Positions 6,001-9,000 of a DNA stretch of 64,000 nucleotides are shown here, piece after piece. Made by a program: the position numbers. The stretch comes from Escherichia coli (GTDB lineage: Bacteria > Pseudomonadota > Gammaproteobacteria > Enterobacterales > Enterobacteriaceae): assembly GCF_045037415.1 (NCBI RefSeq), contig NZ_CP173438.1. One strand, 5' to 3'. The first letter of the stretch is position 1. Every line of letters starts with the position of its first letter.

Positions 6001-9000
6001 ACAAGAAAGTCCTTGCGGGAGAGATGCGCTTAATTCTTCCGTTGGCAATTGGTAAGAGTGAAGTTCGCAGCGGCGTTTCGCACGAGCTTGTTCTTAACGC
6101 CATTGCCGATTGTCAATCAGCGTAACAACAAGAAAGGTCAGGCCGCTTATCAAGCGGTCTATTAGCTTCAGGTTAATTGCAACGTGGTAAGCATTAACCT
6201 TTTAGTGGGGTGTTAAATGGATGAATTCAAACCAGAAGACGAGCTGAAACCCGATCCCAGCGATCGTCGTACTGGTCGTTCTCGTCAATCTTCTGAACGT
6301 TCTGAGCGTACTGAACGTGGCGAACCGCAGATCAATTTTGATGATATTGAACTTGATGACACTGACGATCGCCGTCCGACTCGTGCGCAAAAAGCGCGTA
6401 ATGAGGAACCGGAAATCGAAGAAGAAATTGACGAATCCGAAGATGAAACCGTGGATGAAGAGCGCGTAGAGCGTCGTCCGCGTAAGCGTAAAAAAGCAGC
6501 CAGTAAACCCGCTTCTCGTCAGTATATGATGATGGGTGTCGGCATTCTGGTTCTACTGCTGTTGATCATCGGTATCGGTTCTGCGCTAAAAGCCCCCTCG
6601 ACCTCTTCCAGCGATCAAACTGCGTCTGGCGAGAAGAGTATTGATCTTGCAGGCAATGCGACCGATCAGGCCAATGGCGTGCAGCCAGCGCCGGGAACCA
6701 CGTCTGCGGAAAATACTCAGCAGGATGTTTCTCTGCCGCCGATCTCTTCTACGCCGACTCAAGGGCAAACCCCGGCGGCAACGGATGGTCAACAACGTGT
6801 TGAAGTGCAGGGTGACCTGAACAATGCGCTGACCCAGCCACAAAATCAGCAACAGTTGAACAATGTGGCGGTCAATTCTACATTGCCGACCGAACCCGCA
6901 ACGGTTGCGCCTGTTCGCAATGGCAATGCATCGCGTGACACGGCGAAAACGCAAACCGCTGAACGTCCGGCCACTACGCGCCCAGCTCGTCAGCAGGCGG
7001 TGATTGAACCGAAAAAACCGCAAGCAACCGTGAAAACGGAACCGAAGCCAGTCGCACAGACGCCGAAGCGAACTGAACCAGCTGCCCCTGTGGCGAGCAC
7101 AAAGGCACCGGCTGCGACTTCTACGCCAGCACCAAAAGAGACGGCGACTACGGCTCCAGTACAGACGGCATCCCCGGCGCAAACCACGGCAACACCAGCC
7201 GCTGGAGGGAAGACCGCAGGTAATGTTGGTTCGTTGAAATCGGCACCGTCCAGCCATTACACTCTGCAGCTGAGCAGTTCCTCTAACTACGACAACCTGA
7301 ACGGTTGGGCGAAGAAAGAGAATCTGAAAAACTACGTTGTCTATGAAACGACGCGTAATGGTCAGCCGTGGTATGTCCTGGTTTCTGGCGTGTATGCTTC
7401 GAAAGAAGAGGCGAAAAAAGCGGTATCTACATTGCCAGCAGATGTCCAGGCCAAAAACCCGTGGGCGAAACCGCTGCGTCAGGTACAGGCCGATCTGAAG
7501 TAATCAAGGTTATCTCCCGCAATGGTTTATCATTGCGGGAGTTGCCTGAAGCGCTGGATGCTGTCGGAGCTTTCTCCACAGCCGGAGAAGGTGTAATTAG
7601 TTAGTCAGCATGAAGAAAAATCGCGCTTTTTTGAAGTGGGCAGGGGGCAAGTATCCCCTGCTTGATGATATTAAACGGCATTTGCCCAAGGGCGAATGTC
7701 TGGTTGAGCCTTTTGTAGGTGCCGGGTCGGTGTTTCTCAACACCGACTTTTCTCGTTATATCCTTGCCGATATCAATAGCGACCTGATCAGTCTCTATAA
7801 CATTGTGAAGATGCGTACTGATGAGTACGTACAGGCCGCACGCGAGCTATTTGTTCCCGAAACAAATTGCGCCGAGGTTTACTATCAGTTCCGCGAAGAG
7901 TTCAACAAAAGCCAGGATCCGTTCCGTCGGGCGGTACTGTTTTTATATTTGAACCGCTACGGTTACAACGGCCTGTGTCGTTACAATCTGCGCGGTGAGT
8001 TTAACGTGCCGTTTGGCCGCTACAAAAAACCCTATTTCCCGGAAGCAGAGTTGTATCACTTCGCTGAAAAAGCGCAGAATGCCTTTTTCTATTGTGAGTC
8101 TTACGCCGATAGCATGGCGCGCGCAGATGATGCATCTGTCGTCTATTGCGATCCGCCTTATGCGCCGCTGTCTGCGACTGCCAACTTTACGGCGTATCAC
8201 ACAAACAGTTTTACGCTTGAACAACAAGCGCATCTGGCGGAGATCGCTGAAGGTCTGGTTGATCGCCATATTCCAGTGCTGATCTCCAATCACGATACGA
8301 TGTTAACGCGTGAGTGGTATCAGCGCGCAAAATTGCATGTCGTCAAAGTTCGACGCAGTATAAGCAGCAACGGCGGCACACGTAAAAAGGTGGACGAACT
8401 GCTGGCTTTGTACAAACCAGGAGTCGTTTCACCCGCGAAAAAATAATTCTCAAGGAGAAGCGGATGAAACAGTATTTGATTGCCCCCTCAATTCTGTCGG
8501 CTGATTTTGCCCGCCTGGGTGAAGATACCGCAAAAGCCCTGGCAGCGGGTGCAGATGTCGTGCATTTTGACGTCATGGATAACCACTATGTTCCCAATCT
8601 GACGATTGGGCCAATGGTGCTGAAATCCTTGCGTAACTACGGCATTACCGCCCCTATCGACGTACATCTGATGGTGAAACCCGTCGATCGCATTGTGCCT
8701 GATTTCGCTGCCGCTGGTGCCAGCATCATTACCTTTCATCCAGAAGCCTCCGAGCATGTTGACCGCACGCTGCAACTGATTAAAGAAAATGGCTGTAAAG
8801 CGGGTCTGGTATTTAACCCGGCGACACCATTGAGCTATCTGGATTATGTAATGGACAAGCTGGATGTGATCCTGCTGATGTCTGTTAACCCTGGTTTCGG
8901 CGGTCAGTCTTTCATTCCTCAAACACTGGATAAACTGCGCGAAGTACGTCGTCGTATCGACGAGTCTGGCTTTGACATTCGACTGGAAGTGGACGGTGGC

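Follow-up and report, generated by a model that had tools for sequence, protein, structure and literature searches.

The Pro/Thr/Ala/Gln-rich stretch of damX is the periplasmic linker of DamX and very probably joins a conserved motif module to a loosely constrained spacer

The damX gene of Escherichia coli carries a long stretch rich in Pro, Thr, Ala and Gln codons, which raises the question of whether it encodes a low-complexity, indel-prone linker whose length sets the span between a membrane anchor and a SPOR domain, and whether the long antisense open frame lying across it has any meaning of its own. We addressed this in 64,000 nucleotides of E. coli contig NZ_CP173438.1 (assembly GCF_045037415.1), referred to here as the window.

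The gene is damX, as the original prediction had it. The translated open reading frame matches NCBIfam NF008153 'cell division protein DamX' (PRK10905 equivalog) over its full length (residues 1-428, profile positions 1-424; E 2e-256, 850.9 bits against a cut-off of 256). Pfam SPOR PF05036 is found at the C-terminus at residues 345-418 (E 1.9e-14), and PDB entry 2LFV 'Protein damX', which represents the sole part of DamX in the PDB, matches residues 334-428 (E 1.3e-55). The peptides quoted in the original prediction occur in translated 6217-7503 where it had placed them. The window has the gene order aroB-damX-dam-rpe, as do the E. coli strains VCSW7 and HS and contigs of Salmonella and E. albertii, and one damX copy, each time flanked by aroB and dam, was found in 5425 of 5426 complete E. 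coli genomes. At the DNA level the window damX is 100% identical to the gene in several E. coli chromosomes and 98.0% identical over all 1287 nt to that of K-12-type strains, with 5 nonsynonymous and 21 synonymous differences from the K-12-like allele, 4 and 17 of which fall in the linker. It is the same gene as that of E. coli K-12, which likewise encodes 428 aa in an aroB-damX-dam context with a four-part architecture (10.1101/2022.07.01.498525; PMC7642682), and the window copy differs from it by allelic changes only. The genes and the parts of DamX discussed below are:

5037-6125, + strand: aroB, window ORF
6217-7503, + strand: damX CDS, 428 codons plus stop, from the ORF call and the NCBIfam NF008153 match
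6217-6516, + strand: E/R/D-rich cytoplasmic domain at the N-terminus, residues 1-100, with E 20%, R 17% and D 13% (AlphaFold pLDDT 44-61)
6517-6585, + strand: predicted single transmembrane helix, residues 101-123, from hydropathy and an AlphaFold helix of pLDDT 86-89
6586-7224, + strand: periplasmic linker, residues 124-336, with biased composition and predicted disorder
6733-6924, + strand: candidate conserved-motif module within the linker, residues 173-236, from cross-species invariance and fixed spacing
7069-7206, + strand: Pro/Thr/Ala-rich low-complexity core, residues 285-330 (76% PTAQ), the main indel zone
7225-7500, + strand: SPOR domain, residues 337-428 (PF05036, 2LFV, pLDDT 94-96, dN/dS 0-0.03)
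7610-8446, + strand: dam, window ORF
8464-9141, + strand: rpe, window ORF

This architecture was read from an AlphaFold model built with a 75-sequence alignment, and the hydropathy profile agrees with it. Residues 1-100 are almost without secondary structure in the model. The Kyte-Doolittle profile peaks at 2.66 over residues 106-124 within the sole hydrophobic segment (101-124), an RKRKK cluster lies immediately N-terminal to the helix, and the helix sequence is unchanged between Escherichia and Salmonella. Hydropathy and model thus both place one transmembrane helix behind some 100 aa of cytoplasmic domain, and DamX is predicted from them to be bitopic with its N-terminus inside.

That a linker lies between membrane anchor and SPOR domain, as had been predicted, is correct and is already in the literature, where DamX is described as a bitopic inner-membrane protein with an "extended, mostly unstructured periplasmic linker" (10.1101/2022.07.01.498525; PMC7642682). 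Septal localisation and a division phenotype have been reported for the K-12 protein, and its SPOR domain binds denuded septal glycans and is required for DamX localisation (10.1101/2022.07.01.498525; PMC7642682); stimulation of PBP1B by DamX is reported to require the transmembrane region and not the soluble periplasmic part (PMC7642682). The linker architecture is textbook knowledge for the E. coli divisome and will not surprise a specialist.

The compositional bias of the stretch is strong. Residues 125-337 contain 55.4% P+T+A+Q, compared with a mean of 23.9% (sd 3.7%, maximum 37.1%; z 8.5) in a background of 6886 windows of the same length taken from 31 other long ORFs of the 64-kb window. 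The same residues contain 0% F/W/Y/C against 9.1% in the background and 4.2% FWYCMILH against 30.7%, a composition of the disorder type, and the KL divergence of the linker composition is 0.55 bit per residue. AlphaFold places neither helix nor strand in residues 124-336 (pLDDT 41-66), so that the model holds no stable structure there and the linker is predicted to be intrinsically disordered. The bias is uneven along its length: true low complexity is limited to about residues 285-330, built from 10 residue types, and residues 173-236 are conserved sequence. The original description of a Pro/Thr/Ala/Gln-rich low-complexity linker at residues 95-345 therefore holds for the bias itself, and for low complexity at about 285-330, but not for 173-236, and the range given takes in the transmembrane helix (about 101-123).

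The length of the linker is nearly fixed within E. coli. We took two evenly spaced samples from ranked matches, 40 for the full gene and 60 for the linker, and the standard damX length was found in 98 of these 100 complete genomes: 39 of the 40 full-gene matches are exactly 1287 nt and 59 of the 60 linker matches exactly 675 nt, the exception in each case being the lowest-ranked match of its sample list. Two sites in the linker carry the additional sequence that distinguishes longer alleles:

6967-6972, + strand: CCGGCC hexamer, present as a perfect tandem duplication (+PA) in VCSW7
7123-7134, + strand: 12-nt unit ACGCCAGCACCA, with a second tandem copy elsewhere in E. coli and in E. albertii

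The second copy of the 12-nt unit, ACGCCAGCCGCA (+TPAA), lies just upstream, between 7122 and 7123. A junction-specific search for this form gave 40 single-piece full-length matches among the 5426 complete genomes, so counted as a +12-nt allele (1299 nt, 432 aa) in 40/5426 that include strain HS and related isolates. The duplicated CCGGCC form was matched by a single genome of the 5426, VCSW7, whose +18-nt allele (1305 nt, 434 aa) combines two in-frame linker insertions, one of 6 nt (PA) and one of 12 nt (TPAA). Length-variant alleles are thus found in 41 of 5426 genomes and do not amount to a frequent polymorphism. In the complete E. coli genomes (5425 linker matches) the linker is nowhere shortened by some 13 aa or more, because even the lowest of these matches extends over 100% of the query, at 94.5% identity. 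The common 428-aa allele is probably a derived, shortened state, since the second 12-nt copy is present in E. albertii and the E. marmotae protein has a 4-aa insertion, TPVA, at the site of the E. coli +TPAA.

Rare shorter alleles, with in-frame linker deletions of 13-39 aa, were found in a larger protein collection, in which E. coli/Shigella proteins of 389-415 aa come from draft or metagenome assemblies only. In a 26-sequence alignment, losses of 13-40 aa inside the linker are seen in seven alleles from E. coli and one from E. albertii, two alleles are without 22 aa in the acidic cytoplasmic part, and none of the deletions touches the transmembrane helix or the SPOR domain. Six of the deletion alleles (alignment entries P0010, P0011, P0014, P0015, P0019 and P0020) map to residues 285-330. 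The five deletions checked at the DNA level all lie in the linker, are 69-117 nt long and have 0-6 nt of microhomology at their junctions; a deletion of 87 nt occurs on 11 contigs, with the rest of the allele identical to the K-12-type.

Between species the indels collect in the linker. DamX is 432 aa long in E. albertii and E. marmotae and 433 aa in another Escherichia species. The two forms common in Salmonella, of 425 and 429 aa, are distinguished at those alignment columns that also separate the 428- and 432-aa forms of E. coli. Between E. coli and Salmonella we count about six indel events in the linker and about two in the cytoplasmic domain, whereas helix and SPOR domain have none; even so, alleles that are common in Escherichia and Salmonella stay within 425-433 aa in total despite the roughly six linker events. 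Across 75 bitopic homologues, with identities as low as 26%, the region equivalent to the linker spans 97-264 aa (median 176), and alignment occupancy across this family is 0.13-0.56 in the 285-330 core and 0.13-0.21 at residues 271-300, which are mostly gaps. The expectation that strains would differ in linker length was borne out (428, 432 and 434 aa in E. coli; 425 and 429 in Salmonella). The term 'indel-prone' is only partly right and overstates the case within E. coli, where 98 of the 100 sampled genomes have the standard length: over evolutionary time the linker gathers and tolerates indels, but inside this one species its length is almost constant.

The sequence of the linker is constrained. 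By the Nei-Gojobori method, dN/dS for the linker is 0.09-0.15 against E. albertii and, for residues 125-284, 0.10 against Salmonella, compared with 0-0.03 for the SPOR domain and about 0.08 for the whole gene. These ratios indicate that the linker is held more laxly than the SPOR domain yet is clearly under purifying selection. Three islands, at residues 173-184, 191-206 and 215-236, are invariant in the compared E. coli, E. albertii and Salmonella sequences. The constraint on them acts on the protein and not on the DNA, because E. coli and Salmonella show synonymous differences at 25 of the 50 island codons. With about half of the island codons changed in this way, a DNA-level constraint such as internal dam promoters was ruled out; the sole promoter-like site on the sense strand, at 7234-7263, lies outside the islands.

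The module containing the islands is nearly invariant in the 26-sequence alignment, two rare deletion alleles excepted. Over the 75-sequence family, blocks 171-180, 191-200 and 221-230 match E. coli at a fraction of 0.46-0.55, nearly as conserved as the SPOR domain with 0.48-0.76. Loose motif patterns were found in 26-34 of the 75 members, compared with at most 3 in shuffled controls, figures that come from regular expressions stricter than the family-wide conservation visible in the alignment, and conservation of the motifs fades with distance. Eleven sequences have all three motifs, always in the same order and with spacings of 18-20 and 29-31 aa, apart from one exception at 40; the array reads PxISxTPTQ, 18-20 aa, QxRxExPG..AL, 29-31 aa, LPTxPAT. 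On these alignments the segment is best read as composite: conserved motifs make up a module at about 170-236, and behind it, at about 237-336, comes a variable spacer that holds most of the indels.

We consider it very probable that the flagged stretch is the known DamX periplasmic linker working as a flexible tether, with motifs in its first half and a loosely constrained spacer in its second, and that the antisense frame is a by-product. The analysis shows which gene this is, its architecture, the bias in composition, the predicted disorder, where indels fall and the pattern of selection; tether function, reach and partner binding by the motifs are what we infer for this protein. Through the tether the SPOR domain would be able to reach the septal wall and keep hold of it, with the membrane part remaining at the synthases; the short motifs at fixed spacing in the first half are probably partner-binding sites; and the second half (about 237-336, core 285-330) would be a Pro/Thr/Ala/Lys-rich spacer whose loosely constrained length absorbs most indels, which would come from slippage at very short repeats or from deletion mediated by microhomology. 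By the standard random-coil scaling law, a linker of 213 residues is estimated to span about 10 nm end to end when relaxed, with a contour length of about 81 nm, and the family range of 97-264 residues would correspond to about 7-11 nm relaxed. The distance from the inner membrane to the wall is of the same order as the estimate of about 10 nm.

A reading in line with the original prediction, that this is a purely passive spacer in which only length and composition matter, sequence drifts and length is tuned to the distance between membrane and peptidoglycan, is unlikely in our view. Strong compositional bias and predicted disorder would suit such a spacer, as would a single length common to about 99% of E. 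coli genomes and the maintenance of 425-433 aa in Escherichia and Salmonella through indels of opposite sign. A sequence free to drift would not, however, be expected to keep residues 173-236 invariant across E. coli, E. albertii and Salmonella while half of the island codons change synonymously, nor to keep its dN/dS so far below 1 or its motif spacing fixed in distant homologues. As judged from the alignments, the fixed-spacing motifs together with this dN/dS show a linker that is more than plain spacer. The wide natural length range of the family linkers and the natural alleles lacking up to 39 aa suggest that no single length is required and would argue against a tightly tuned one. Even so, the near-fixed E. 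coli length (about 99% at 428 aa) and the 425-433 range mean that length could be more constrained than 'loosely' implies.

A hypermutable contingency tract, in which repeats drive length switching or diversifying selection acts on the linker, for example at a contact with phage T4 gp27, we regard as extremely improbable. The +6 and +12 nt tandem duplications, the recurrent indel site common to E. coli and Salmonella and the reported cross-linking of DamX to T4 gp27 (PMC11054660) speak for it. Against this, TRF detected no tandem repeat in the linker DNA, its sole array being at 6291-6318 in the cytoplasmic part, and direct repeats in the linker DNA are scattered and none is longer than 10 exact nt, so the variable tract lacks tandem repeats and repeat-driven instability was ruled out. 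The +6 form in one genome and the +12 form in 40, HS and related isolates among them, also count against switching. Diversifying selection was ruled out by linker dN/dS values of 0.02-0.15 across all pairs, well below 1.

A further reading confines the linker to the second half. In it residues from about 170 to 236 would not be linker at all and would instead form an array of short linear motifs docking a partner in the periplasm, for instance a peptidoglycan synthase, FtsQLB or another SPOR protein; this is a tentative proposal by analogy, and we think it somewhat less likely to be right than wrong. If it were true, the second half alone would be a length-tolerant spacer. In FtsN, a short functional motif, the E domain, lies inside an otherwise unstructured linker (10.1101/2022.07.01.498525), and this is the closest precedent for the DamX motifs, likened here by description. 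A literature search found neither a description of a motif module inside the DamX linker nor a function assigned to the motifs.

The antisense frame was examined separately:

6586-7257, - strand: antisense ORF of 223 aa with an ATG start, a by-product and not a gene

The frame that the original prediction had pointed out exists, and the stop-free run is in fact longer, covering sense codons 125-428 (304 codons), though it carries no signal of its own. Its codons line up exactly with those of damX, (7255-6217) mod 3 being 0, and in this register antisense stops arise solely from the sense codons TTA, CTA and TCA. The frame stays open because damX has only two of these codons, 113 and 124, and it is a by-product of the low Leu/Ser content of the protein and the scarcity of rare codons in its gene.

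That the minus strand of 6586-7257 is a real overlapping gene has a negligible chance of being right. The ATG-initiated ORF of 223 codons is present, and the 304-codon run lies in the upper tail of a synonymous resampling that used the window's own codon usage (P = 0.03 for at least 304 codons). In 16% of cases, however, the same resampling yields 223 codons or more (P = 0.16), and seven other long ORFs of the 64-kb window carry in-register antisense runs of 218-528 codons, so the frame is not in excess of the length expected given the sense protein. Nor is it conserved in related species: it is closed at four sense codons in Salmonella (176, 337, 353 and 403), all of them downstream of codon 124, and at a single one, 214, in E. 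albertii. The product is an Arg/Cys/Gly-rich mirror sequence, and a Pfam search with it matched no family. An overlapping antisense gene was ruled out on this combination of register, resampling, similar runs, interruptions in relatives and Pfam result.

Set beside other systems, the DamX linker is the longest among the SPOR proteins of the inner membrane, DamX, FtsN and DedD, and its equivalent in DedD (residues 36-141) is disordered by NMR (PMC7642682). Residues 285-330 have the same composition as the interdomain linkers, rich in Pro/Thr/Ala, that secreted and envelope proteins carry, are without hydrophobic or aromatic residues, and like those linkers accept indels and change faster in evolution than the domains on either side. 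DamX is unlike such linkers in general in that its DNA is without repeat units and only about a quarter of its linker is of that type. The motifs at fixed spacing are an obvious target for dissecting roles of DamX beyond SPOR-mediated septal targeting. As by-products, the analysis provides a quantification of linker-length stability in 5426 E. coli genomes and a map of natural indel positions in damX.

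The linker of DamX, described as indel-prone in the original prediction, is shortened in an allele represented by locus L009, where the gene lies as follows:

GCA_051339185.1, 201-1400: damX, 399-aa allele

This allele carries an in-frame deletion of 87 nt spanning codons 297-326, with the microhomology CACC at the junction, and is otherwise identical to a K-12-type damX allele. The same 399-aa type is present on 11 contigs and represents a natural, or possibly laboratory, lineage living with a DamX linker 29 residues shorter.

Length variation was also observed in the cytoplasmic part of the protein, which contains the sole tandem repeat of damX:

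6291-6318: tandem repeat with a 9-nt period, 3.1 copies, encoding SERSERTER

In the alignment, Salmonella DamX lacks 5 residues precisely at the SERSERTER repeat, and a distinct 22-aa deletion (residues 60-81) is found in one Shigella sonnei allele and in one metagenome (ENA) sequence. From the Salmonella gap and the 22-aa deletion alleles, therefore, the acidic cytoplasmic region is likewise indel-tolerant. Glu, Arg and Asp make up 50% of residues 1-100 (window 6217-6516), for which AlphaFold predicts next to no structure (pLDDT 44-61), contrasting with the published description of this domain as 'likely folded' (PMC7642682). Residues 1-28 are unchanged between Escherichia and Salmonella in the sequence alignment, and the segment [17 protein letters not shown] of the cytoplasmic domain is conserved family-wide.

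In two aligned DamX proteins from ENA metagenome contigs (P0007 and P0009, 421 aa each), the cytoplasmic N-terminal domain is Salmonella-like and the linker and SPOR domain are identical or nearly identical to those of E. coli; each is the product of either recombination between genera or chimeric assembly. A damX match was absent from one of the 5426 complete E. coli genomes searched. In the same collection, one damX match comes from a sequence record that bears a plasmid label.

Synonymous divergence is unevenly distributed along damX. For E. coli-E. coli pairs, dS was 0.09-0.19 in the linker (6586-7224), 3-6 times that of the cytoplasmic (6217-6516; 0.03-0.05) and SPOR (7225-7500; 0.016-0.03) parts, and against E. 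albertii linker dS was about twice that of these two parts. Candidate explanations are looser codon or mRNA constraint within the linker, constraint at the DNA level on the flanking parts of damX, and a history of recombination.

Outside damX, several long ORFs (274-528 aa) run antisense to longer ORFs of the window:

44639-46225, minus strand: long antisense ORF
22293-23681, plus strand: long antisense ORF
47133-48044, plus strand: long antisense ORF
14662-15486, minus strand: long antisense ORF

Antisense frames that stay open in register with the sense codons are common in the window, and the one opposite damX (6586-7257, minus strand) is for that reason unremarkable.

Promoters of dam have been reported inside damX. 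The 3' part of damX contains one promoter-like site, with dam approximately 350 nt downstream:

7234-7263, plus strand: sigma-70-like promoter match, TTGAAA, 18 nt spacer, TACACT (9/12)

Judged by its match to the consensus, this site is a putative promoter.
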